Source: a virus
Virus genome (UHGV): UHGV-0229940
DNA: 46,029 nucleotides
Strand: one strand, 5' to 3'
This document shows positions 3,241-15,441 of this stretch, piece by piece. Every line of letters begins with the position of its first letter. The first letter of the stretch is position 1. The translations under genes and the position numbers were made by a program. Below the pieces are notes generated by a model, which did no database searches, had not been told where the DNA came from, and saw only the letters and a list, made by a program, of their open reading frames with translations.

Positions 3241-3822
3241 TCAAGAGTATTTTTTAGGCAGTAATGCGCTACGCTTGTTGCTCTCTTCACTCAATAGTGC
3301 GATAAAATCGTCACCTTTGCCTTTCCACGGGCTGAATGAAGGGATATGTTCACGAATAGCCTCAATAACCGTCTTAAGTGCTGTATTTTTCATCCACCAG
3401 TCAGAATCTGCTGATGCTACAACATAGTAGCCACCTTCATCAGTCAGAATTGGCTCTGAGATACATGGTGAAATCAGAGTGGTGACGATTGAACCATTAT
3501 TCATGTAGTATGTGCGCTTCATAACCTTTTCAAGAAGCTTGTGAAGGTCACCAAACAGTGTTACAAGCTCTTTATGGTCAATGTCTTTTTCGAGATTTGC
3601 TCGATACTTCAAAAGTGCAGCATCAACTTCTCTGTCATTAAACTTGAAGTACTGGACTTCCTCAACAAGACAAACACTGATGTTGTTGACATTCATAGTC
3701 AACTTGCAGACTTTTGCAGGAGAATTGATATTTGGTTGAAAAAGTGCAATACACCCTTCAATGTTTCCAAAATGTTGTACTAATGTCACTTGTGGAGTGA
3801 TACTCTGTTGCTCTTCGGACAT
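3241..3822 (-). CDS. hypothetical protein
   Basis: 193 aa ORF. Confidence 0.6.
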   Translation of the reverse strand: MSEEQQSITPQVTLVQHFGNIEGCIALFQPNINSPAKVCKLTMNVNNISVCLVEEVQYFKFNDREVDAALLKYRANLEKDIDHKELVTLFGDLHKLLEKVMKRTYYMNNGSIVTTLISPCISEPILTDEGGYYVVASADSDWWMKNTALKTVIEAIREHIPSFSPWKGKGDDFIALLSEESNKRSALLPKKYS

Positions 3823-4847: not shown

Positions 4848-5238
4848 AAAAACCTCTCTCTGCTTGTTCGATTTTTGCTCTTAAAATTTCGCAATGTTGT
4901 AAATGGTAGTTAGCTTCTTGTTCATGTGTTGCTAACTGCCTTTCCAGAACAGTTTTATAGTAACCTGCAAGTTGCTCTTTTGTCAACGGGTGTTCTGAAA
5001 TAATATCAAGTCCACTTTCGCCAAGAGGGTTGAATTGTCCATGCTCATTGACATTGTAAGTCTCAAACTTGAACAGACCATTGTTCACAGACTCAATAGG
5101 CGACAGCTCAACAAGCTCTACAGTAAACCGTGTATATACCTTGTCACCTCTTGAAACCACATTGTTTCCGACAATGCGTACAAGCGAGCCATTACGAGTG
5201 TACTTAAAAGTTCCAAAGTCACTAGCCCAAAGTTTCAT
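4840..5238 (-). CDS. hypothetical protein
   Basis: 132 aa ORF. Confidence 0.55.
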   Translation of the reverse strand: MKLWASDFGTFKYTRNGSLVRIVGNNVVSRGDKVYTRFTVELVELSPIESVNNGLFKFETYNVNEHGQFNPLGESGLDIISEHPLTKEQLAGYYKTVLERQLATHEQEANYHLQHCEILRAKIEQAERGFYE

Positions 5239-8716: not shown

Positions 8717-10132
8717 ATGAGCGAGTTATTTAAACATGCGCACCTTCATGCAGGTCGAACTGAAAATGGTGCTGTAAACCATACTTCATCAATGTCTGCT
8801 CTGGTAGACTTCTACAAAGCCGCTGGCTCAAGCCGTAGCAATGTAGAAATCTTACCAGACCTGTTCTACAAAGCTTTGCGTGAGGATGTTGATGTTGCAG
8901 TTCGTATTTTACTGCATATGCGAGATGTACGAGAAGGTATGGGTGAGCGTAAAGCTTTCCGAACTGTTTTACTTCAAGCACTTGAAGACAAGGTTTTAGA
9001 GCCTACGCAGGTTCTTCGCATTATGGATAAGATTGCAGAACTTGGTCGTTTTGATGACTTCAAAATCTTCGTAGGTACTCGTTTCGAGACAGATGCCTTC
9101 AAACACCTAGAAGCAGCATTACTAGAACCTGCAACAGCAGGTTTGGCGGCTAAGTGGTTACCACGAGTCAAACCACGTCATAAGCAGTTTGTAAAACGTT
9201 TCTGCAAGTTTGCCAACTTGAGTGAGAAAGAGTACCGCACACTGTTGTCTGCACTATCTGATACAGTTGAGCAAAAAATCTCTGCTAATGAGTTTGGTAA
9301 GATTGACTACAGTAAGATTCCTTCACTTGCTGCTGCACGTTACCAAAAACTGTTTAACCGCAAAGATGGAGAACGCTACAAAGCTTACATCGAGTCCTTA
9401 TCAAAGGGTGAGACTAAGATTAATGCTGGTGCTGTTTACCCATACGATGTAATTAAATCTGTTAAGCATGGTAATGCAGATGTTGCTAATGAGCAGTGGA
9501 AAGCACTACCAAACTGGATGGCAGATGGTGAAAACATCTTGTGTATGTCTGATGTTTCAAGCTCAATGTCTTGGGTGAATTTTGGTTCAATTACTGCTCT
9601 TGATATTGGTGTTTCACTTGCATTGTATGTAGCAGAACGCAATACAGGTTGCTTCAAGGATGAGTTAATGGTTTATTCAACAAACCCTCACTTCATCGAA
9701 CTGAGTGGTGATTTACGAAACCGTCATCGTCAGGTGATGCGACATGTTGAATATGGCTCAACTAACTTACAAGCAGCTTTTGACCGCATTCTTGAGGTAG
9801 GTAAGAGAAACAACTTGACTCAGAAAGACATGCCAAGTAAGCTTATCATCTTCTCAGATATGGAGTTCAATCAGGTTGATGGAGCTAACGGTCGTACAAA
9901 CTTTGAAGCAATTCAGAGTAAGTACAAAAAAGCTGGGTACGAAATGCCTCAACTGGTATTCTGGTACTTAGCAAACCGTAATGGTACTTGCGAAGTGTCT
10001 GTTAAGGATAACGGTGTAGCAATGGTATCTGGTTTTTCTCCAGCTACTTTAAAAGCTCTGCTTGGTGGTGAGAAGTTTGACCCAATCAGTGTAATGCTCA
10101 AAGCAGTAATGATTGACCGTTACATCTGGTAA
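8717..10132 (+). CDS. von Willebrand factor A (vWA) domain protein with MIDAS motif; Ro60/TROVE-like two-part architecture is a hypothesis
   Basis: 471 aa; DxSxS MIDAS motif in ILCMSDVSSSMSW about residue 275; about 270 aa N-terminal region upstream of the vWA fold. Confidence 0.8.
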   Translation: MSELFKHAHLHAGRTENGAVNHTSSMSALVDFYKAAGSSRSNVEILPDLFYKALREDVDVAVRILLHMRDVREGMGERKAFRTVLLQALEDKVLEPTQVLRIMDKIAELGRFDDFKIFVGTRFETDAFKHLEAALLEPATAGLAAKWLPRVKPRHKQFVKRFCKFANLSEKEYRTLLSALSDTVEQKISANEFGKIDYSKIPSLAAARYQKLFNRKDGERYKAYIESLSKGETKINAGAVYPYDVIKSVKHGNADVANEQWKALPNWMADGENILCMSDVSSSMSWVNFGSITALDIGVSLALYVAERNTGCFKDELMVYSTNPHFIELSGDLRNRHRQVMRHVEYGSTNLQAAFDRILEVGKRNNLTQKDMPSKLIIFSDMEFNQVDGANGRTNFEAIQSKYKKAGYEMPQLVFWYLANRNGTCEVSVKDNGVAMVSGFSPATLKALLGGEKFDPISVMLKAVMIDRYIW

Positions 10133-10150: not shown

Positions 10151-10179
10151 TTGACAATGTGTTTGATACCCTTTAATAT
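10151..10179 (+). promoter_or_regulatory. sigma70-like promoter (TTGACA, 17 nt spacer, TAATAT) overlapping inverted repeat GGGTAT/ATACCC
   Basis: Consensus -35 at 10151-10156 and -10 at 10174-10179; lies upstream of the first tRNA. Confidence 0.55.
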
Positions 10180-10241: not shown

Positions 10242-10270
10242 TTGACAACCACTAAAAAATAATGTTAAAG
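10242..10270 (+). promoter_or_regulatory. second promoter-like TTGACA box followed by inverted repeat AACCACT/AGTGGTT
   Basis: TTGACA at 10242-10247; weak -10 candidates; 7 bp inverted repeat spanning the -10 region. Confidence 0.3.
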
Positions 10271-10297
10271 TGGTTACATAGAGTTTGAAAAGTTTAT

Positions 10298-10374
10298 CTC
10301 TGTTTAGCTCAGCTTGGTAGAGCGTTCCGTTTGGGGCGGTAAGGCCGGAGGTTCAAGTCCTCCAACAGAGACCA
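10298..10374 (+). tRNA. tRNA-Pro (anticodon TGG)
   Basis: Manual cloverleaf: acceptor CTCTGTT/AACAGAG, T-arm GGAGG-TTCAAGT-CCTCC, anticodon loop TTTGGGG, CCA encoded. Confidence 0.7.
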
Positions 10375-10381
10375 AATTAAT

Positions 10382-10456
10382 GTTCCAGTAGACAAAATGG
10401 TAAAGTCACCACTCTTTCAAAGTGGATATCTGAGGGTTCAAATCCCTTCTGGAACG
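10382..10456 (+). tRNA. tRNA-Glu (anticodon TTC)
   Basis: Acceptor GTTCCAG/CTGGAAC, anticodon stem CCACT/AGTGG, loop CTTTCAA. Confidence 0.7.
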
Positions 10457-10466
10457 CAAGTTTTGA

Positions 10467-10540
10467 CAGAAGACCAATTACAGCAAACTTAATCTACTCA
10501 TCTGACACGAAATCGGACAAAGAAGATATTTGGTCTGGTC
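10467..10540 (+). ncRNA. inter-tRNA structured spacer element, copy 1 (5' box CAGAAGACC-NNN-TACAGCAA, 3' box GGTCTGG; AGACCAAT pairs with ATTTGGTCT)
   Basis: Conserved boxes with a complementary flank whose sequence differs between copies while pairing is kept. Confidence 0.5.
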
Positions 10541-10549
10541 ATTGAGAAT

Positions 10550-10626
10550 TGCGGGTATAGAGAAAGGGCGTCTCACATGTCTCATTAGCATGGTATCGGC
10601 AGGTTCGACTCCTGCACCCGCCTCCA
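10550..10626 (+). tRNA. tRNA-Met (anticodon CAT); position 1:72 is a T:C mismatch
   Basis: T-arm GCAGG-TTCGACT-CCTGC, acceptor 3' ACCCGCC, anticodon loop CTCATTA, CCA encoded. Confidence 0.6.
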
Positions 10627-10632
10627 ATTTTG

Positions 10633-10694
10633 CAGAAGACCGTATTCAGCAACAAAATACTTTTTGCGGATAAAAGAAAAAACACGGTCTGGCA
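10633..10694 (+). ncRNA. inter-tRNA structured spacer element, copy 2 (AGACCGT pairs with ACGGTCT)
   Basis: Same CAGAAGACC ... CAGCAA 5' box and GGTCTGG 3' box as copy 1, with compensatory change in the pairing flank. Confidence 0.5.
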
Positions 10695-10703
10695 ATGTAT
10701 TAA

Positions 10704-10780
10704 GGTTAGGAAGCACATAAGGTATGTGCGGTCGCCTGTTAAGCGAATGGCACAGGGTTCGAATCCCTGACTAACCGCCA
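10704..10780 (+). tRNA. tRNA-Asn (anticodon GTT)
   Basis: T-arm CAGGG-TTCGAAT-CCCTG, anticodon loop CTGTTAA, CCA encoded. Confidence 0.7.
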
Positions 10781-10788
10781 AATTAAAT

Positions 10789-10876
10789 GTGTCGTTATCC
10801 CGTAGATGGTAGCGGTGGGGACTGTAAATCCCTTGTCATTGAGACTCGGTAGGTTCGACTCCTACACGGCACACCA
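10789..10876 (+). tRNA. tRNA-Tyr (anticodon GTA), long variable arm
   Basis: 88 nt; anticodon stem GGGGA/TCCCT, loop CTGTAAA; T-arm GTAGG-TTCGACT-CCTAC. Confidence 0.7.
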
Positions 10877-10881
10877 ATAAA

Positions 10882-10958
10882 GGCTATGTAGTTTAACTGG
10901 AGAAAATACTCCCCTGTCACGGGAGATGATGTGAGTTCAAGTCTCATCGTAGCCGCCA
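10882..10958 (+). tRNA. tRNA-Asp (anticodon GTC)
   Basis: Anticodon stem CTCCC/GGGAG, loop CTGTCAC; acceptor GGCTATG/CGTAGCC. Confidence 0.7.
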
Positions 10959-11019
10959 ATTTTGAGAGGGCTATTTAGCCCCTCCCTTAAAGAGTTCTTA
11001 CGAGTATTCTTTAAAGGAG

Positions 11020-11095
11020 CAGAAGACCAAATACAGCAAGAATGTATGAAATTTCAAGCCAATTTAATTTTGAAAATTTAAAACTTGGTCTGGCT
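11020..11095 (+). ncRNA. inter-tRNA structured spacer element, copy 3 (AGACCAA pairs with TTGGTCT)
   Basis: Conserved 5' and 3' boxes with covarying complementary flank. Confidence 0.5.
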
Positions 11096-11106
11096 CAACA
11101 AATTTA

Positions 11107-11238
11107 CAGAAGACCGTTTACAGCAAAACTTAAACAATCTATTTCTCCGGTAAAGAAAAGGCGAAGGTTCGATTCCTTCACTCGGCAGATGTCGAGTTGG
11201 TGTAATGGTAGCACTTAAGATGATAAACAACGGTCTGG
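11107..11238 (+). ncRNA. inter-tRNA structured spacer element, copy 4 (AGACCGTT pairs with AACGGTCT), enclosing a permuted tRNA-like segment
   Basis: Same boxes as copies 1-3; internal segment 11139-11214 has tRNA anticodon-arm, T-arm and acceptor-3' features followed by acceptor-5' and D-arm features. Confidence 0.45.
11139..11214 (+). pseudogene. permuted or fragmentary tRNA-like sequence (3' two-thirds precedes a complementary 5' acceptor and D-arm)
   Basis: Anticodon-like stem TTTCT/AGAAA, T-arm GAAGG-TTCGATT-CCTTC, acceptor-3' ACTCGGC, then GTCGAGT (pairs with ACTCGGC) and D-arm GTGTAATGGTAGCAC. Confidence 0.35.
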
Positions 11239-11241
11239 TAA

Positions 11242-11257
11242 TTATCTTTGTAGATAA
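11242..11257. repeat. palindromic hairpin TTATCT-TTGT-AGATAA (left copy)
   Basis: Exact reverse complement of the copy at 11366-11381. Confidence 0.6.
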
Positions 11258-11365
11258 GTTATTAAGCTTACCTGTGAGTATGCGACCACAAAGGGTGAAA
11301 GGGTAAATTCTAGATTTAAACCCAAAAAGGCACATCGCTACAGACCTTAAGCAAGTCTGGGTAGC

Positions 11366-11381
11366 TTATCTACAAAGATAA
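11366..11381. repeat. palindromic hairpin TTATCT-ACAA-AGATAA (right copy, inverted relative to 11242-11257)
   Basis: The two copies bracket a 108 bp segment. Confidence 0.6.
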
Positions 11382-11387
11382 TTTAAT

Positions 11388-11463
11388 GGAAGTGTAGCAG
11401 AATGGTGATGCGGCAGACTTTTAATCTGACAGGCGATGGGTTCGAATCCCTCCACTTCTACCA
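11388..11463 (+). tRNA. tRNA-Lys (anticodon TTT)
   Basis: Anticodon stem CAGA/TCTG, loop CTTTTAA; acceptor GGAAGTG/CACTTCT; CCA encoded. Confidence 0.6.
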
Positions 11464-11467
11464 ATAT

Positions 11468-11544
11468 GGTTCAGTCGCAGATAAGGTAATGCAAGGGTCT
11501 CATAAGCCCTATGAATGTGGGTTCGATTCCCATCTGAACCTCCA
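11468..11544 (+). tRNA. tRNA with CAT anticodon (Met, initiator or Ile-lysidine type; GGG/CCC run in anticodon stem)
   Basis: Perfect acceptor GGTTCAG/CTGAACC, anticodon loop CTCATAA, T-arm GTGGG-TTCGATT-CCCAT. Confidence 0.7.
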
Positions 11545-11545
11545 A

Positions 11546-11621
11546 GCTGGTATAGTTAAGAAGGTTATAACACTCCCCTGATAAGGGAACATCGGTGGTT
11601 CGATTCCACCTACCAGTACCA
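11546..11621 (+). tRNA. tRNA-Ile (anticodon GAT)
   Basis: Anticodon loop CTGATAA; T-arm GGTGG-TTCGATT-CCACC. Confidence 0.65.
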
Positions 11622-11636
11622 ATTTCAATAAAGTTG

Positions 11637-11665
11637 TTGACATTGAGATGTGACTACTTTATAGT
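11637..11665 (+). promoter_or_regulatory. strong sigma70-like promoter inside the tRNA array (TTGACA, 17 nt spacer, TATAGT)
   Basis: -35 at 11637-11642, -10 at 11660-11665. Confidence 0.6.
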
Positions 11666-11868
11666 AACCTTAGTTTTCGTTGCGTAGCGTCTATTTTGCA
11701 AATTTAAAATAAATGCAAACGACAATGTTTTTCTGGCAGTAGCTTGATAGGCTAAACACCAGTGAGGTCTTCCAATCCCTCATCAAAGAATTTGGCGTAC
11801 TAGCCCACGGTATGATTAATAAGGTGGGCATCTTTAAGGGCTTTCTAAGAGAGTCTTTAAAGATTAAT
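11666..11868 (+). ncRNA. about 200 nt promoter-proximal non-tRNA spacer; candidate small stable RNA
   Basis: No ORF and no tRNA fold found; contains stem GCCCAC/GTGGGC (about 11789-11814); downstream of the promoter at 11637. Confidence 0.3.
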
Positions 11869-11945
11869 GCACCCTTAGTTCAATTGGATAGAGCAACGGT
11901 CTTCTAAATCGTTAGTTACAGGTTCGAATCCTGTAGGGTGTGCCA
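11869..11945 (+). tRNA. tRNA-Arg (anticodon TCT)
   Basis: D-arm GTTC-AATTGGATA-GAGC, anticodon stem ACGGT/ATCGT, loop CTTCTAA. Confidence 0.7.
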
Positions 11946-12087
11946 ATTAGTTAGCAGATTACTTAGACGACCTAAGCGGGTCTTCCTGTAGGGAGGTGGT
12001 CTGTATCTCATGTTTTCCAGAACATGTAAATAATCTGAGAAGGGGCTTTACAGTGTTGAGATAATACGGTAAGCTTCGAATTATAAT

Positions 12088-12170
12088 ATGGGACGATGTT
12101 AAGACTCTAAGGCATGAGCAACGGCCTCCAAAACCGTTTCAAAGGGGTTCAACTCCTCCGTCCCATGCCA
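12088..12170 (+). tRNA. tRNA-Trp-like (anticodon CCA) with about 7 extra nucleotides between acceptor and D-arm
   Basis: Perfect acceptor ATGGGAC/GTCCCAT, anticodon stem ACGG/CCGT, loop CTCCAAA; total about 80 nt without CCA. Confidence 0.5.
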
Positions 12171-12183
12171 AAGTCTTATTAGG

Positions 12184-12271
12184 GGTAGGTAGCGGCTAAT
12201 GGTAGCCAAACTGTCTTGAAAACAGTTGCCACTGTAGAGATACGGTGAGGGTTCGACTCCTTTACTTACCG
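12184..12271 (+). tRNA. tRNA-Ser (anticodon TGA), long variable arm
   Basis: Anticodon stem ACTGT/ACAGT, loop CTTGAAA; 88 nt. Confidence 0.7.
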
Positions 12272-12429
12272 CCTAATAAGGTTTAAAGCCAAGCTTCATT
12301 CGGATGTTGCTTTGGTATCCCTCGTGTATTGTCGTACAAGCACAGTAAAGCACCTAGTAGGTGTCACGGAGAAGAGATAATATCAAGCTCTCCAAAGGTT
12401 CTAGTCACCGGATTAAACAAGACTATGCA

Positions 12430-12451
12430 AAGACCTTTTTAGGTCTTTTTA
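12430..12451 (+). terminator. terminator-like hairpin inside the tRNA array (AAGACC-TTTTTA-GGTCTT then T-run)
   Basis: 6 bp perfect stem followed by TTTTT. Confidence 0.4.
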
Positions 12452-12529
12452 GAGGGCTTCTAAGGTTATTACAGCTTGTTGTGGAACCTTGTTGCTTAGG
12501 TTCTTAGAAGTTCTCTAAAAAGATTTAAT

Positions 12530-12607
12530 GGGAGATTGACGGTAATTGGTAAACCTACCATCCTTAGAAGTTGGTGTTTGAGGGTTCGAATCCCTTGTCT
12601 CCTACCA
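12530..12607 (+). tRNA. tRNA with anticodon TAG (Leu decoding) but short variable arm
   Basis: Acceptor GGGAGAT/GTCTCCT, T-arm GAGGG-TTCGAAT-CCCTT, anticodon loop CTTAGAA; 78 nt. Confidence 0.5.
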
Positions 12608-12614
12608 AATTAAT

Positions 12615-12690
12615 GCAGGTGTAGCAAAATGGTTATGCGGCTGACTCTTAATCAGTAAGACGATGGGTTCAATTCCCTCCACCTGTACCA
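12615..12690 (+). tRNA. tRNA-Lys (anticodon CTT)
   Basis: Anticodon stem GCTGA/TCAGT, loop CTCTTAA; paralogous to the Lys-TTT gene. Confidence 0.6.
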
Positions 12691-12696
12691 GACATT

Positions 12697-12772
12697 GGGG
12701 ATGTAGTTTACATGGTTAAAACATAAGTTTTGCAAACTTAAGTACAGGGTTCAATTCCCTGCTTCTCCACCA
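12697..12772 (+). tRNA. tRNA-Ala (anticodon TGC) with G3:U70 identity pair
   Basis: Anticodon stem TAAGT/ACTTA, loop TTTGCAA; G at position 3 opposite T at position 70. Confidence 0.7.
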
Positions 12773-12778
12773 ATTAGT

Positions 12779-12853
12779 GCATCCATAGTTTAAACGGGAA
12801 AATTACAGTCTTCCAAACTGAGGTTGAGGGTTCGATTCCCTCTGGATGCTCCA
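12779..12853 (+). tRNA. tRNA-Gly (anticodon TCC)
   Basis: Perfect acceptor GCATCCA/TGGATGC, anticodon loop CTTCCAA. Confidence 0.7.
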
Positions 12854-12860
12854 AATTAAT

Positions 12861-12937
12861 GCTGCTTTCGTATAATTGGCTATTACACATCCCTTGTAAG
12901 GATGGAAATGCGGGTTCGAGTCCTGTGAGCAGCACCA
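12861..12937 (+). tRNA. tRNA-Thr (anticodon TGT)
   Basis: Anticodon stem CATCC/GGATG, loop CTTGTAA. Confidence 0.7.
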
Positions 12938-13032
12938 ATTCAGAGGTCAAGTGAAAGACCGCTGGTGTCAACTGAAGACCGTAACAAATTCCACGGAGTT
13001 GAGTTAGCGGCACAACTTCAGACCTCTTTCAC

Positions 13033-13107
13033 ACTCGCTTAGTTTATATGGTAAAACATCACCCTTACAAGATGAAGAAAAAGGTTCAAGTCCTTTAGTG
13101 AGTACCA
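13033..13107 (+). tRNA. tRNA-Val (anticodon TAC)
   Basis: T-arm AAAGG-TTCAAGT-CCTTT, anticodon loop CTTACAA. Confidence 0.6.
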
Positions 13108-13108
13108 T

Positions 13109-13186
13109 GTTCCAGTATCCCAATTGGCAGAGGATGCAAGCTCAAACCTTGTATTAGTGACGGTTCGAATCCGTCTTGGAACACCA
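13109..13186 (+). tRNA. tRNA with anticodon CAA (Leu decoding) but short variable arm
   Basis: Acceptor GTTCCAG/TTGGAAC, T-arm GACGG-TTCGAAT-CCGTC, anticodon loop CTCAAAC. Confidence 0.5.
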
Positions 13187-13191
13187 ATTTT

Positions 13192-13267
13192 GCAGGATTA
13201 GTTCAAATGGATAGAGCAACAGTCTACGAAGCTGTTAATAGGGGTTCGAATCCCTTATCCTGCGCCA
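13192..13267 (+). tRNA. tRNA-Arg (anticodon ACG)
   Basis: Perfect acceptor GCAGGAT/ATCCTGC, anticodon loop CTACGAA. Confidence 0.7.
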
Positions 13268-13284
13268 GATAAAAAGGTGATACT

Positions 13285-13527
13285 ATGCAAACATTAACAG
13301 TAGTTGAACATGAAAACTGTGAGAATATTGAGTTTGTCAGGGTCATTGGTGTTGAACACCACATTTTCTTAAAAGTAGGGTACTTATGTGACCCCGCTAG
13401 AGTAGAAAGATTTATACGTGATTGTTTTGGTGGTAGACAGCTAAAGAGTGTTATTTTTGAGACAGTTTTACCAGAAGGTTTAGAAACGAATAATAACATT
13501 TATCTCCTTACAAGGATTAGACGATGA
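13285..13527 (+). CDS. hypothetical protein encoded inside the tRNA array
   Basis: 80 aa ORF with SD AAAGGTGA upstream. Confidence 0.5.
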   Translation: MQTLTVVEHENCENIEFVRVIGVEHHIFLKVGYLCDPARVERFIRDCFGGRQLKSVIFETVLPEGLETNNNIYLLTRIRR

Positions 13528-14081
13528 GATATTTAAAATATGCTTCATGGATTTTCCTAGCTTTGCTAGAACCATTAGCAGCAACCTTAGCAGTTATCTT
13601 AGCACCTTTCGTAGTTCCATTTTACAGTGAGAAGAAAGGCCACTTACCTTTCGGATTTAGATGGATGGAGACATATGACAACCCAATTGATGGTGACGAA
13701 GGTCATATCGAACGATGGGCTAAGATTAGAAAGATTGGTAAGCTGGGTGTCTACATGCAGAGAGTCGGATGGCTCTGGAGAAACAAAGCTTATAACTTCT
13801 CTTACCATGTATTAGGAAGAGATGTAAAAGATGTTACTAAGTGGAAAGGTAATATCAACGTAAGTTCTGACCCTGAAGATAATCAGACAGGTTATCTCCT
13901 AATGTGGAACAGTAATGCTTGGGGATTATTCGCTTTTATCCCATCAATTAAAGTCTTTGGTAAACAGTTTTACTGGAGAATTTATATTGGATGGAAACTA
14001 AAAAGTGTTGTCCCAGAAGAAAGAGCATTCTCAAGGGAAAGAGTTATGTTGGCATTCTTTATTCATCCACTGAGAAAGTAA
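13524..14081 (+). CDS. hypothetical membrane-anchored protein encoded inside the tRNA array
   Basis: 185 aa; N-terminal hydrophobic segment ASWIFLALLEPLAATLAVILAPFVVPF; 4 nt overlap with the upstream ORF. Confidence 0.6.
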   Translation: MRYLKYASWIFLALLEPLAATLAVILAPFVVPFYSEKKGHLPFGFRWMETYDNPIDGDEGHIERWAKIRKIGKLGVYMQRVGWLWRNKAYNFSYHVLGRDVKDVTKWKGNINVSSDPEDNQTGYLLMWNSNAWGLFAFIPSIKVFGKQFYWRIYIGWKLKSVVPEERAFSRERVMLAFFIHPLRK

Positions 14082-14089
14082 AGATTTAA

Positions 14090-14165
14090 AGGGGATTAGT
14101 TTACAAGGTTAAAACCTCGGTCTTTGAAATCGAAGAAGTTGGTTCAATTCCAACATCCCCCGCCA
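14090..14165 (+). tRNA. tRNA-Gln (anticodon TTG), weak 1:72 pair
   Basis: D-stem GTTT/AAAC, anticodon stem TCGGT/ATCGA, loop CTTTGAA. Confidence 0.65.
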
Positions 14166-14167
14166 AT

Positions 14168-14246
14168 GCTCCATTACTCCAATTGGCAGAGAGGCCAGAC
14201 TTAAAATCTGTGTTATGTATCGGTTCGAATCCGATATGGAGTACCA
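14168..14246 (+). tRNA. tRNA with anticodon TAA (Leu decoding) but short variable arm
   Basis: Acceptor GCTCCAT/ATGGAGT, T-arm ATCGG-TTCGAAT-CCGAT, anticodon loop CTTAAAA. Confidence 0.5.
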
Positions 14247-14251
14247 AATTT

Positions 14252-14327
14252 AGCGGTATAGCATAACTGGCAATGCAACAGTCTCTGAAGCTGTCCTATT
14301 AAGGTTCAAATCCTTATGCCGCTGCCA
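14252..14327 (+). tRNA. tRNA-Gln (anticodon CTG)
   Basis: Anticodon stem ACAGT/GCTGT, loop CTCTGAA. Confidence 0.6.
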
Positions 14328-14358
14328 CTTCTAAGGGTTCTTACGAGAGTCCTTAAAT

Positions 14359-14434
14359 GTGGCCTTATCATAAATGGTAATGACCCATGCTGTGAACATG
14401 GTCTATACGGGTTCAAATCCCGTAGGTCACCCCA
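14359..14434 (+). tRNA. tRNA-His (anticodon GTG)
   Basis: Anticodon stem CCATG/CATGG, loop CTGTGAA; T-arm ACGGG-TTCAAAT-CCCGT. Confidence 0.7.
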
Positions 14435-14439
14435 ATTTA

Positions 14440-14516
14440 TAGTCCAAGTAGCTTATATGGTTAAAGCGCGTGTCTGAAAAACATGAGAAGAGGGTTCAAA
14501 TCCCACTGGACTACCA
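14440..14516 (+). tRNA. tRNA-Phe (anticodon GAA)
   Basis: Perfect acceptor TAGTCCA/TGGACTA, anticodon loop CTGAAAA. Confidence 0.65.
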
Positions 14517-14532
14517 ATTTCAAAGGTGCTTA

Positions 14533-15267
14533 ATGAAAGAGATGACAGAACAAGGTAAGGAGATTTTTAATCTCTTAAAAACCGGTAAAGGGTTTTCTAA
14601 CCCACTTATTACTGGTGCAGCAGTTCTCGGTGGAACCGTAGCTGCTTCTACATCACTTGTAAGCTCTATTAGTTCTGTAACAGACCCTACAATGCAGGAG
14701 AAACTTGTTGCTGCTGGACTTACAACAGTCCTTCTAAACAGCTTTACAACAAGCCTTACAAGCACTACAGCAACTACTAAGACCCTGACAGACTACGGTC
14801 AAAAATCTATTGATGAGTTTTCATCACGTATGCAGGTAGCAAAGGGATATTCCAATGTTATGGGTGCAGCAGGAGAACAAGTTGGTTGTACACCGTTCAG
14901 TGGTATTATGGGTGTTGCTACAGAATATGGTCAAAAAGCTATTGATACGATTAACAGTACACTAGAGAGTGTTAACGATGTATTAAGTGACTTACAAGAC
15001 GCTATTGACAAGGGTCTTGATACTGTTTCTGATTTAGCTAACCAAGCTGTCAGTAAGATTAATGAAGGTATCTCAAAGATTACAGCTTATGCAGATGAAG
15101 TTGTGCAGATGATTGAAGAAGAAGCTGCCCTTATTGCAGAGTACCTTAAAACGAATATCAATGGGTTCTTAGCAGGTATCTTACCAGACTGGTTTGATGA
15201 TGCCTGTAAAACTGGTGTAATTGACACTATTGCAACACCAGAAATGAAGAACGCATTACAGAAATAA
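14533..15267 (+). CDS. hypothetical Ser/Thr-rich protein encoded inside the tRNA array
   Basis: Six-frame ORF 14470-15267 would overlap two tRNAs, so start is placed at Met 14533 (MKEMTEQ ...); 244 aa. Confidence 0.6.
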   Translation: MKEMTEQGKEIFNLLKTGKGFSNPLITGAAVLGGTVAASTSLVSSISSVTDPTMQEKLVAAGLTTVLLNSFTTSLTSTTATTKTLTDYGQKSIDEFSSRMQVAKGYSNVMGAAGEQVGCTPFSGIMGVATEYGQKAIDTINSTLESVNDVLSDLQDAIDKGLDTVSDLANQAVSKINEGISKITAYADEVVQMIEEEAALIAEYLKTNINGFLAGILPDWFDDACKTGVIDTIATPEMKNALQK

Positions 15268-15361
15268 TGGAAGATTAACCCTAAAAGGTAAGGGAGCAGT
15301 TTGCTAAACTGCCAGTAGCTGAGAAATCGGTGTACCAGTTCAAGTCTGGTATCTTCCTCCA
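15268..15361 (+). tRNA. tRNA-Ser (anticodon GCT), long variable arm
   Basis: Perfect acceptor GGAAGAT/ATCTTCC, anticodon stem GCAGT/ACTGC, loop TTGCTAA; 94 nt. Confidence 0.7.
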
Positions 15362-15365
15362 ATTT

Positions 15366-15441
15366 GAATCCGTGACAGAAATGGCTATGTGCCTGTCTGC
15401 AAAACAGGTTTATAAGGGTTCGAGTCCCTTCGGATTCTCCA
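15366..15441 (+). tRNA. tRNA-Cys (anticodon GCA)
   Basis: Perfect acceptor GAATCCG/CGGATTC, anticodon stem CCTGT/ACAGG, loop CTGCAAA. Confidence 0.7.

Follow-up and report, generated by a model that had tools for sequence, protein, structure and literature searches.

The 46,029-nucleotide (nt) viral genome UHGV-0229940 (hereafter the window, i.e., the whole stretch of DNA that was analyzed) belongs to a Felix O1-like phage (Ounavirinae, Felixounavirus), and its array of transfer RNA (tRNA) genes harbors on the plus strand a segment (11139-11214, CTATTTCTCCGGTAAAGAAAAGGCGAAGGTTCGATTCCTTCACTCGGCAGATGTCGAGTTGGTGTAATGGTAGCAC) in which the parts of a cloverleaf appear in permuted order. We consider it probable (roughly 70%) that this segment forms the tRNA-mimicking module of a Y RNA of YrlA-like type, a small non-coding RNA encoded near the gene of a protein with a Ro60 fold, and that it represents neither a decoding tRNA nor the debris of one. 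The reading is based on the agreement between the V, T, acceptor-stem-like, and D stem-loops found here on an enclosing stem and the published architecture of YrlA, in which stem-loops of the same four kinds are carried by a Ro60-binding stem (Chen et al. 2014, PMC4201824). Covariation in all of its helices supports the fold.

The conservation of Ro60-Y RNA particles extends from bacteria to humans, and their bacterial and viral roles are poorly understood. For Felix O1-like phages, what had been reported previously was a protein fold and an anti-defence phenotype: gp130 of the E. coli phage Bas63 is structurally similar to Ro60 and counters the ppl defence, while the presence of Y RNAs among the tRNAs was no more than a conjecture (PhageMaP preprint, 10.1101/2024.10.10.617714), and no RNA partner had been pinpointed for it before. 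For the likely partners (one long and three short units in Felix O1-like phages), the present analysis supplies exact positions, a structure backed by covariation, and a covariance model, and the conjecture of Y RNAs is now directly testable in a tractable system, either E. coli K-12 with Bas63 or Salmonella with Felix O1.

Organization of the element within the tRNA array

A 601-base query around the segment matched 351 phage records, most of them at 95–100% identity. According to ARAGORN, the array comprises 26 tRNA genes at 10298-15441 (24 of these confirmed by Rfam), and the segment is located in a 430-nt gap between the end of tRNA-Asp (10958) and the start of tRNA-Lys (11388). The first-pass annotation had pointed out an anticodon-like arm, a T arm, an acceptor 3′ strand, its complement, and a D arm within the fourth copy of a spacer, and its inventory was accurate: all these motifs are present where it had placed them, the 3′ acceptor strand (11180-11186) forms 7/7 pairs, one G-U included, with GTCGAGT four bases further on (11191-11197), and CAGAAGACC occurs exactly four times in the window (10467, 10633, 11020, and 11107, all on the plus strand), the last copy being the one concerned. 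All four copies lie within the tRNA array, each with GGTCTGG 60–125 nt downstream. The parts of the long unit that begins at the fourth copy are given below, where P1 stands for the enclosing stem of 7 base pairs (bp), AS for the closed acceptor-like stem, R1 for a covariance model built from 28 elements, and E for the expectation value.

11107-11243, plus strand: long unit 4, a complete YrlA-like element of about 137 nt (R1 match over all model positions, 113.3 bits, E 2e-26)
11111-11117, plus strand: 5′ strand of P1, AGACCGT, with its partner at 11230-11236 (the family has at least 15 different P1 sequences, every one of them complementary, with double changes at all 7 pairs)
11118-11126, plus strand: single-stranded box TTACAGCAA (family consensus TTNC(A/C)GCAA)
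11142-11158, plus strand: V hairpin TTTCT-CCGGTAA-AGAAA, previously noted as the anticodon-like arm (stem kept, loop variable in sequence and length)
11163-11179, plus strand: T arm GAAGG-TTCGATT-CCTTC (within the partial match to the Rfam tRNA model; 97% of cells pair)
11180-11197, plus strand: AS, consisting of ACTCGGC (11180-11186), loop AGAT (11187-11190), and GTCGAGT (11191-11197)
11198-11199, plus strand: TG, with T11198 at the position of U8
11200-11214, plus strand: D arm GTGT-AATGGTA-GCAC (invariant by construction in the pattern-selected sets, covarying in the protein-anchored set)
11230-11236, plus strand: 3′ strand of P1, ACGGTCT, followed by the tail GGTAAT at 11237-11242 (family tail consensus CTG(G/T)T(A)AT)

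Folding of unit 4 with RNAfold, without constraints, returned the P1, V, T, AS, and D helices. The three other copies of CAGAAGACC begin shorter units that consist of the framework only and could be regarded as module-less siblings of unit 4, comparable to YrlB.

10467-10543, plus strand: short unit 1, between tRNA-Glu and tRNA-Met; P1 AGACCAA (10471-10477) / TTGGTCT (10530-10536), box TTACAGCAA, tail GGTCAT
10633-10697, plus strand: short unit 2, between tRNA-Met and tRNA-Asn; P1 AGACCGT (10637-10643) / ACGGTCT (10684-10690), box TTCAGCAA, tail GGCAAT
11020-11098, plus strand: short unit 3, directly before unit 4; P1 AGACCAA (11024-11030) / TTGGTCT (11085-11091), box TACAGCAA, tail GGCTCA

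R1 matched units 1 and 2 from one end to the other, the tRNA-like module being deleted in the alignment (32.3 bits, E 5e-6, and 30.4 bits, E 1.5e-5, respectively), and P1 was predicted by RNAfold in both. Unit 3, which was not returned as a separate R1 match in the window, is near-invariant over three genera, and its P1 was located by RNAfold together with the motif positions. P1 covaries between these paralogous units, being AGACCAA/TTGGTCT in units 1 and 3 vs. AGACCGT/ACGGTCT in units 2 and 4.

Searches of the window with Rfam, at gathering as well as permissive thresholds, returned nothing at the segment except a partial match to the tRNA model (11130-11180, 22 bits, threshold 29). When the segment was de-permuted, ARAGORN accepted it as a cloverleaf; this is weak evidence, since 9/25 chimeras of unrelated neighboring tRNAs were also called tRNAs, and the count of acceptor pairs is the more useful control, as the same pairing over the 25 junctions of real neighboring tRNA genes in the window gave 1–5 pairs of 7 and never 7. 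The locus has been annotated in several ways before, namely as a 129-nt “tRNA-Thr-GGT” by tRNAscan-SE in phage ASO1B (L004 370-498), as the antisense open reading frame (ORF) “ORF94” in Felix O1 (L003 505-735), and as two small antisense ORFs, bas63_0137/0138, in Bas63 (L324 3449-3723). The long tRNA call and the small antisense ORFs, placed over a structured RNA, are probably mis-annotations, and a Y-RNA-like element accounts for their repeated appearance at this locus, along with that of pseudo-tRNAs.

Covariation and occurrence in unrelated phages

The spacer was aligned from Felixounavirus, Mooglevirus, and Suspvirus (35 loci tabulated), and across these three genera the sequence surrounding the segment is better conserved than many genes. 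AS exists in three versions, each of them complementary: ACTCGGC/GTCGAGT with the loop AGAT, AGGT, or AGAG; ACACGT/GCGTGT, a 6-bp stem closed by a UACG tetraloop (Mooglevirus, Suspvirus); and ACCCTTC/GAAGGGT with the loop GCCAAACA in the HP1-type relatives, where the loop reads as a discriminator G, CCA, and a 4-nt spacer AACA. As the two halves of the HP1-type element are separated by G-CCA and a 4-nt spacer, it may well be true that the element originated from a tandem dimer of one tRNA gene. The putative anticodon loop is CCGGTAA in the window (with C at position 33), the 6-nt CGGTAA in Felix O1 and many others, and CTGGTAA, CTGATAA, or CTATGAA in the related genera, while the HP1-type shows no convincing hairpin there; the de-permuted homologues are assigned by ARAGORN to Thr, Pro, Arg, Ser, or to no identity. 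The variable loop and the inconsistent identities indicate that shape was selected and a decoding identity was not.

Two candidate features were discarded: a CTTAA/TTAAG flank pairing beside the D arm, which is not kept in Mooglevirus or Suspvirus, and an insertion concealing an intact tRNA, as the extra ~72 nt of the relatives with longer matches (H1, H8, H9, H20) sits between tRNA-Lys and tRNA-Met, outside this spacer. One record among the hits, GU169904.1 (H69), carries the name Staphylococcus phage SA1 and a Felix O1-type spacer at 98.7% identity, an oddity in a staphylococcal phage that suggests a mislabelled or chimeric record.

Viral contigs were then searched with a pattern consisting of the T-loop and this D arm only, 15–35 nt apart. 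The intervening strands were complementary at 7/7 positions in 50 of the 151 matches, 16 of these 50 being outside the Ounavirinae, and many of the 16, together with others that have shorter or imperfect stems, possess the whole framework in the order P1, TTNC(A/C)GCAA box, A-rich linker, V hairpin, T arm, AS, D arm, P1, and CTG(G/T)TAAT tail. The sequences of P1 and AS differ from contig to contig. With Rfam, only ordinary tRNAs were found on these contigs, and the elements occupy the gaps between the called tRNAs; throughout the family they are located inside or beside tRNA arrays, often with tRNA genes abutting both sides. Patterns specific for the framework retrieved 116 and 25 viral loci, and only 2 matches in 185,579 prokaryotic genomes. 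Within the box, C15, G17, C18, and A19 were invariant in the alignments A4 and A5 described below (the box is part of the A5 search pattern), and the box was recovered in the protein-anchored matches as well. In one large subgroup (L042, L046, L072, L074, L078, L093, L103, L112, L113, L126), the AS loop is a conserved hexamer, TTGGTC, on a freely varying stem, which suggests a sequence-specific contact there; tails of a preceding unit (..ATCCTGTTAT) occur directly upstream in the arrays of this subgroup, so that tandem units are present in them too.

For pair counting, registers were set by invariant anchors only: the T stem was placed around the T-loop; one AS strand was the first 7 nt behind the T stem, and the other the 7 nt up to a point 2 nt before the D arm; the P1 strands were the 7 nt up to a point 3 nt before the box and the 7 nt that end at the tail motif. 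A MAFFT alignment (A4) was rejected for this purpose, as it mis-registered the variable loops, and was kept only as the seed of the covariance model. All 7 P1 pairs were formed in 64/84 unique sequences, with P1 strands of 15 and AS strands of 29 different sequences. In A5, a motif-anchored, gap-free, N-padded alignment of 53 of these sequences defined by the anchors, 94.7% of the cells pair (vs. 68.4% in shuffles and 38–48% with slid partners), double changes are found in 17/23 pairs, and the covariation score is 0.674 vs. 0.181, a value reached by 0/500 shuffles. P1 was paired in 99.5% of the cells of this set, which had been filtered for P1 with ≥ 6/7 pairs; AS, which was not used for selection, covaries at all 7 pairs and is paired in 85% of the cells, including rows with an AS of < 7 bp. 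In A7, the protein-anchored alignment of R1 matches, 92.8% of the cells pair vs. 57.5% in shuffles, and double changes occur in 25/26 pairs, V and D included; all 5 pairs of the V hairpin covary in it (83% of cells paired), and the T arm has double changes in 3/5 pairs in A5 and in 4/5 in A7.

These alignments of related phages bear directly on the second suggestion of the first-pass annotation, that the segment might be the junction of two decayed tRNA genes with no joined product. It has to be rejected, because the compensatory changes show that the pairing is under selection.

A Ro60-fold protein as the candidate partner

Directly upstream of the tRNA array lies a gene on the same strand as the units:

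8717-10132, plus strand: gene for a 471-amino-acid protein with a predicted Ro60 fold (Pfam DUF2828 and DUF7788; PHROG 850, “RNA-binding protein”)

The gene stops 165 nt short of the first tRNA, and unit 4 follows ~1 kb downstream. The gene is the positional orthologue of bas63_0130, which encodes Bas63 gp130. An AlphaFold model of the protein (predicted local distance difference test, pLDDT, 87.9; predicted template modelling score, pTM, 0.87) consists of a helical repeat at residues 28-263 and an alpha/beta domain at 274-464 with a DxSxS sequence, and as modelled it has the architecture of Ro60/TROVE proteins, i.e., HEAT-like helical repeats followed by a vWA domain with a MIDAS motif (metal-ion-dependent adhesion site). 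When the model was compared with the PDB by Foldseek, each of the top 11 structures was a Ro60 protein, with an alignment spanning the full length (E 4e-8 to 4e-6, template modelling score up to 0.67), followed by isolated vWA domains; the 11 comprise Xenopus Ro60, Deinococcus Rsr, and the Ro60 of Thermus phage phiLo (1yvr, 2i91, 2nvo, 9kop, and 9l5y being among the full-length alignments). Identity to the solved Ro60 structures is 11–16%, a phmmer search against the PDB gave no match, and hhalign aligned the DxSxS region with the vWA domain of TROVE proteins. The Ro60 assignment thus rests on the predicted fold, since the sequence methods (Pfam, phmmer, hhalign) do not make the link by themselves. 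More than 2,500 homologues of the DUF2828 family were scored, largely from large phages, and at least 591 of the 600 viral stretches among the matches listed were confirmed as relatives; this large phage family labelled “DUF2828” is Ro60-like by its predicted fold. Only unrelated papers, on plants and tardigrades, were found in the literature for “DUF2828”.

A connection between such RNAs and recognizable Ro60 genes came from the T-loop/D-arm pattern, three matches of which adjoin genuine Pfam TROVE genes:

L143, about 3280-3340, minus strand: T arm, closed stem, and D arm
L071, 6231-6280: T arm, closed stem, and D arm
L116, about 5010-5070, minus strand: T arm, closed stem, and D arm

The pattern therefore recovers what appear to be bona fide phage YrlA loci, and unit 4 has the T/AS/D core in common with them (T-loop GGTTCGANTCC, D arm GTGTAATGGNAGCAC). 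As Rfam 15 found nothing but tRNAs on these three contigs either, it appears to have no model that detects such RNAs.

For the DUF2828 proteins, the linkage was assessed from both sides. A DUF2828 ORF is present at 19/50 non-Ounavirinae loci of the RNA family, always on the same strand and 0–4.7 kb downstream, vs. 5/94 control tRNA-array loci, and in one subgroup the element ends 10–100 nt before the DUF2828 start codon. In the reverse test, 80 loci were picked by the DUF2828 protein alone and searched with R1, which gave 83 matches (E ≤ 0.01) in ~40/75 of the non-Ounavirinae loci, all on the strand of the gene: 43 were units of ≥ 100 nt, most of them with a recognizable T-loop, and 40 were shorter, nearly all of these framework-only.

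Several observations weigh against a Y RNA that is bound by this protein. About half of the protein-selected loci have no R1 match within 6 kb, and the gene is upstream of the RNA in the Ounavirinae and downstream of it in most other loci; the association of RNA and protein would follow from their linkage in the genomes alone. Pfam found no TROVE match for the 471-amino-acid protein, and the hhalign comparison with TROVE proteins covers the vWA region only, at 75% probability. The Rsr-binding motif of YrlA, GNCGAAN0-1G (CGAA), is absent from the family, which has the TTNC(A/C)GCAA box in its place, and the GGCGAAG of the window (11159-11165), situated where V meets T, is replaced by GGAGAAG or GGAGAGG in close relatives. 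On the side of the alignments, the P1 figures of A5 are inflated by the filter mentioned above and by the choice of the 3′ anchor among the tail motifs, and A7 was aligned to the covariance model and hence leans towards the structure.

Set against the published description of YrlA, unit 4 shows the order of an optional V hairpin, T arm, closed AS, and D arm within a terminal stem, and it has a neighboring gene that is Ro60/Rsr by fold (Foldseek) and bears the Pfam labels DUF2828/DUF7788 instead of TROVE. We have filed the element with the Y RNAs as a variant and outside the published YrlA family, because the GNCGAA motif is missing and the partner is not TROVE-annotated. No description of this RNA family was found in Rfam or the searchable literature, the coverage of which is incomplete, so an earlier description elsewhere is possible.

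Proposed mechanism, alternative explanations, and known systems

In the mechanism we propose, the RNA would be transcribed within the precursor of the phage tRNA array and released by the enzymes that excise the flanking tRNAs. Its covariation-supported fold would consist of the 7-bp P1 with conserved single-stranded boxes, enclosing a four-way module of V, T, AS, and D that imitates the elbow and the acceptor/T stack of a tRNA. The stem-and-box framework, which occurs four times in the array and three times without the module, would most likely be the binding site of the upstream Ro60-fold protein, as gene linkage and the Ro60/Y-RNA precedent suggest, and units 1–4 are thus likely to be bound by it. 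More speculatively, the tRNA-like module would most likely recruit, or act as a decoy for, a host factor that recognizes tRNAs, and would thereby add to the anti-defence role of gp130. Three further features of the region touch upon such a transcript:

10151-10179, plus strand: sigma-70-like promoter match ahead of the first tRNA (10/12 consensus positions; consensus match only)
10242-10271, plus strand: second sigma-70-like promoter match ahead of the first tRNA (10/12 consensus positions; consensus match only)
11240-11383, plus strand: Ounavirinae-specific hairpin of ~145 nt between unit 4 and tRNA-Lys

Judged by their sequence, the matches at 10151 and 10242 are likely to be the start of the transcript carrying the units. 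The region 11125-11390 folds with a z-score of −3.7, and the hairpin at 11240-11383 has a basal stem of ~24 pairs (RNAalifold) with 6 compensatory pairs between the Felixounavirus and the Mooglevirus/Suspvirus clades, its interior being diverged save ATTCTAGATT. No hairpin of this type was seen in the non-Ounavirinae families, where the tail adjoins the next tRNA; in the Ounavirinae, the hairpin and unit 4 may belong to one transcript product.

An unlikely alternative, compatible with the Y RNA reading as an added maturation step, is a two-piece tRNA-like RNA. RNase P would cut the AS loop just 5′ of G11191, the new 3′ end would be trimmed so that it ends in or receives CCA, and the nicked molecule could be aminoacylated or bind EF-Tu, with two-piece tmRNA and the M. 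smegmatis YrlA as precedents. The 7-bp AS on the 5-bp T stem gives the 12-bp unit measured by RNase P, the YrlA of M. smegmatis, with a 7-bp acceptor-like stem, is cut by RNase P in the loop of this stem and receives CCA (PMC4201824), and the HP1-type relatives encode ACCCTTC-G-CCA-AACA-GAAGGGT, that is, a discriminator, CCA, and a 4-nt trailer. However, the loop of the window, AGAT, has only 4 nt and lacks CCA, the 6-bp stem with a UACG tetraloop in Mooglevirus and Suspvirus suggests that a closed hairpin has been selected for, AS is only 4–5 bp or else 9 bp long in the subgroup located directly upstream of DUF2828 genes, and the conserved TTGGTC loop of another subgroup suggests a function other than a cleavage site. 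The tetraloop-closed and shorter stems of other lineages speak against a general occurrence of such a maturation. Rather unlikely, too, is the broader conjecture that phage tRNA arrays widely hide a class of unrecognized Ro60-partner RNAs, the module of which would be opened by RNase P to a CCA-ended molecule in two pieces and then be charged or be bound by tRNA-targeting defence nucleases or translation factors, with the Ro60-tethered, nicked pseudo-tRNA sensing or neutralizing tRNA-directed immunity.

The element might also act independently of any Ro60-like protein, as a stand-alone tRNA mimic or processing signal, either a decoy for nucleases or modifying enzymes that target tRNAs or a punctuation mark guiding RNase P, RNase E, or RNase Z. 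Its position in tRNA arrays, often abutted by tRNA genes on both sides, would fit, as would the protein-selected loci without a match and the 31/50 non-Ounavirinae family loci in which the fetched stretch holds no DUF2828 gene, although the absence of the gene is weak evidence, many loci being short windows of larger contigs. We nevertheless judge this quite improbable: the framework also occurs without the tRNA-like module (40 short units in the reverse test, and units 1–3 of the window), which is hard to explain for a tRNA decoy, and the linkage to DUF2828 genes is strictly same-strand, with some elements placed 10–100 nt before the start codon.

A genuine circularly permuted tRNA gene, one of the two readings offered by the first-pass annotation, would require the ends at positions 26/27 to be joined and the acceptor loop to be opened, yielding a decoding tRNA (Thr-GGU or Arg-CCG). 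The part of this claim that concerns the order stands, as the elements follow one another as in a circularly permuted cloverleaf and the acceptor strands are perfectly complementary; the de-permuted sequences are called tRNAs by ARAGORN, and users of tRNAscan-SE annotated the 129-nt tRNA-Thr-GGT in another phage. The part that concerns maturation to a decoding tRNA does not hold and is very improbable, being largely refuted by the variability of the loop: a loop of 7 nt with U33 and a purine at 37 would be expected, whereas it is not conserved, has 6 nt in many genomes, and carries C33 in the window. The ARAGORN identity is different or absent depending on the lineage, and the call itself is weak in view of the chimeras; the open ends run into conserved boxes and a plain, covarying 7-bp helix with no bulge-helix-bulge, and the same framework exists without the tRNA-like insert. 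To our knowledge, there is no maturation pathway for permuted tRNAs in bacteria or phages.

Non-functional debris, i.e., the 3′ part of one decayed tRNA gene next to the 5′ part of a second gene or of its tandem copy, is hardly conceivable as the present state, because covariation shows selection: pseudogenes do occur in phage tRNA arrays, and the G-CCA and 4-nt spacer of the HP1-type fit a tandem dimer of one tRNA gene, but compensatory changes keep every helix paired over three genera and many unrelated phages, the surrounding spacer is conserved beyond many genes, and the element family has defined boxes and a gene linkage.

Some other features of the array were recorded alongside. Trp is the only amino acid without a called tRNA; the stretch 12090-12164 combines a T arm with a CTCCAAA loop (anticodon CCA), but ARAGORN does not call it and its score is just 23 bits, obtained with the tRNA-Sec model of the tRNA clan. 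A divergent or decayed tRNA-Trp is possible there. A long hairpin just upstream of tRNA-Leu(tag), at 12435-12534, came up through a fortuitous match with the model of a plant microRNA precursor, and its end, AAAGATTTAATGG, resembles AAAGATAATTTAATGG, which ends the hairpin before tRNA-Lys; long hairpins with such a leader may be recurrent before some tRNAs of the array. After tRNA-Asp, at 10966-11014, a G+C-rich hairpin (GAGAGGGCT-ATTT-AGCCCCTCCC) is followed by the box AAGAGTTCTTACGAGTATTCTTTAA, which recurs at 14333-14357 (80% identical); hairpin and box are invariant over three genera, and conceivable roles are those of a processing site, a terminator that lacks a T run, or a promoter specific to the phage. 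Two protein genes of Pfam DUF7338 and DUF7217 (13524-14081 and 14533-15267) lie inside the tRNA array on the same strand.

Among known systems, Cyanidioschyzon merolae and other algae have permuted tRNA genes that are processed through a circular intermediate at a bulge-helix-bulge by a splicing endonuclease and a ligase; the products are decoding tRNAs, and their anticodon loops are conserved. The element of the window resembles them in having the 3′ half upstream of the 5′ half and a short linker between the 3′ and 5′ ends of the acceptor, and differs from them in the lack of a bulge-helix-bulge and of a conserved anticodon loop, with the break at 26/27 lying inside a conserved framework. 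In genes of two-piece transfer-messenger RNA (tmRNA), the T arm and the acceptor 3′ strand with CCA precede an intervening segment and the acceptor 5′ strand. This permuted gene order is shared, in contrast to the absence of a tag reading frame and pseudoknots and the presence of a true 4-bp D arm here. A tmRNA was rejected as a candidate: ARAGORN found none, the downstream sequence has no conserved ORF (a short one from the ATG at 11222 is lost in Mooglevirus), and CCA is found only in the HP1-type relatives.

Closer to our reading are the phages that encode a Ro60 together with Y RNAs. Thermus phage phiLo has a Ro60 with Yrl1/Yrl2, for which an anti-defence role via hijacked host PNPase is proposed (PMC12135203). 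In both phages, two or more Y-like RNA genes lie beside a Ro60, and the phiLo protein is among the best structural matches to that of the window; the phiLo RNAs differ in carrying the CGAA motif and a stem-bulge-stem, with no tRNA-like module mentioned in the text as searched, and the protein is a recognizable TROVE. Other phage pairs of Ro60 and Y RNA, with canonical TROVE proteins, are listed for mycobacteriophages, CcrColossus, and Bacillus phage G (Chen 2014, via a citing paper).

Like the YrlA of M. smegmatis, the element has an acceptor-like stem of 7 bp that stacks on its T arm, and the HP1-type relatives encode G-CCA at the matching place, unlike the short loop of the window, which lacks it, and the stems of other subgroups, which are too short or too long; cleavage would be hypothetical here. 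Compared with YrlA in general, the partner is a very divergent Ro60 (DUF2828 and DUF7788) with no Pfam TROVE match, the TTNC(A/C)GCAA box and the CTG(G/T)TAAT tail replace the GNCGAAN0-1G/CGAA motif, the enclosing stem has only 7 bp, and the units are interleaved with tRNA genes in an array and include short versions without the tRNA-like module. What they share is the same order of an optional V, T arm, closed AS, and D arm within a stem formed by the 5′ and 3′ regions, the location on the same strand beside a gene with a Ro60 fold, and the presence of several Y-like RNAs per locus, as in the case of YrlA and YrlB.

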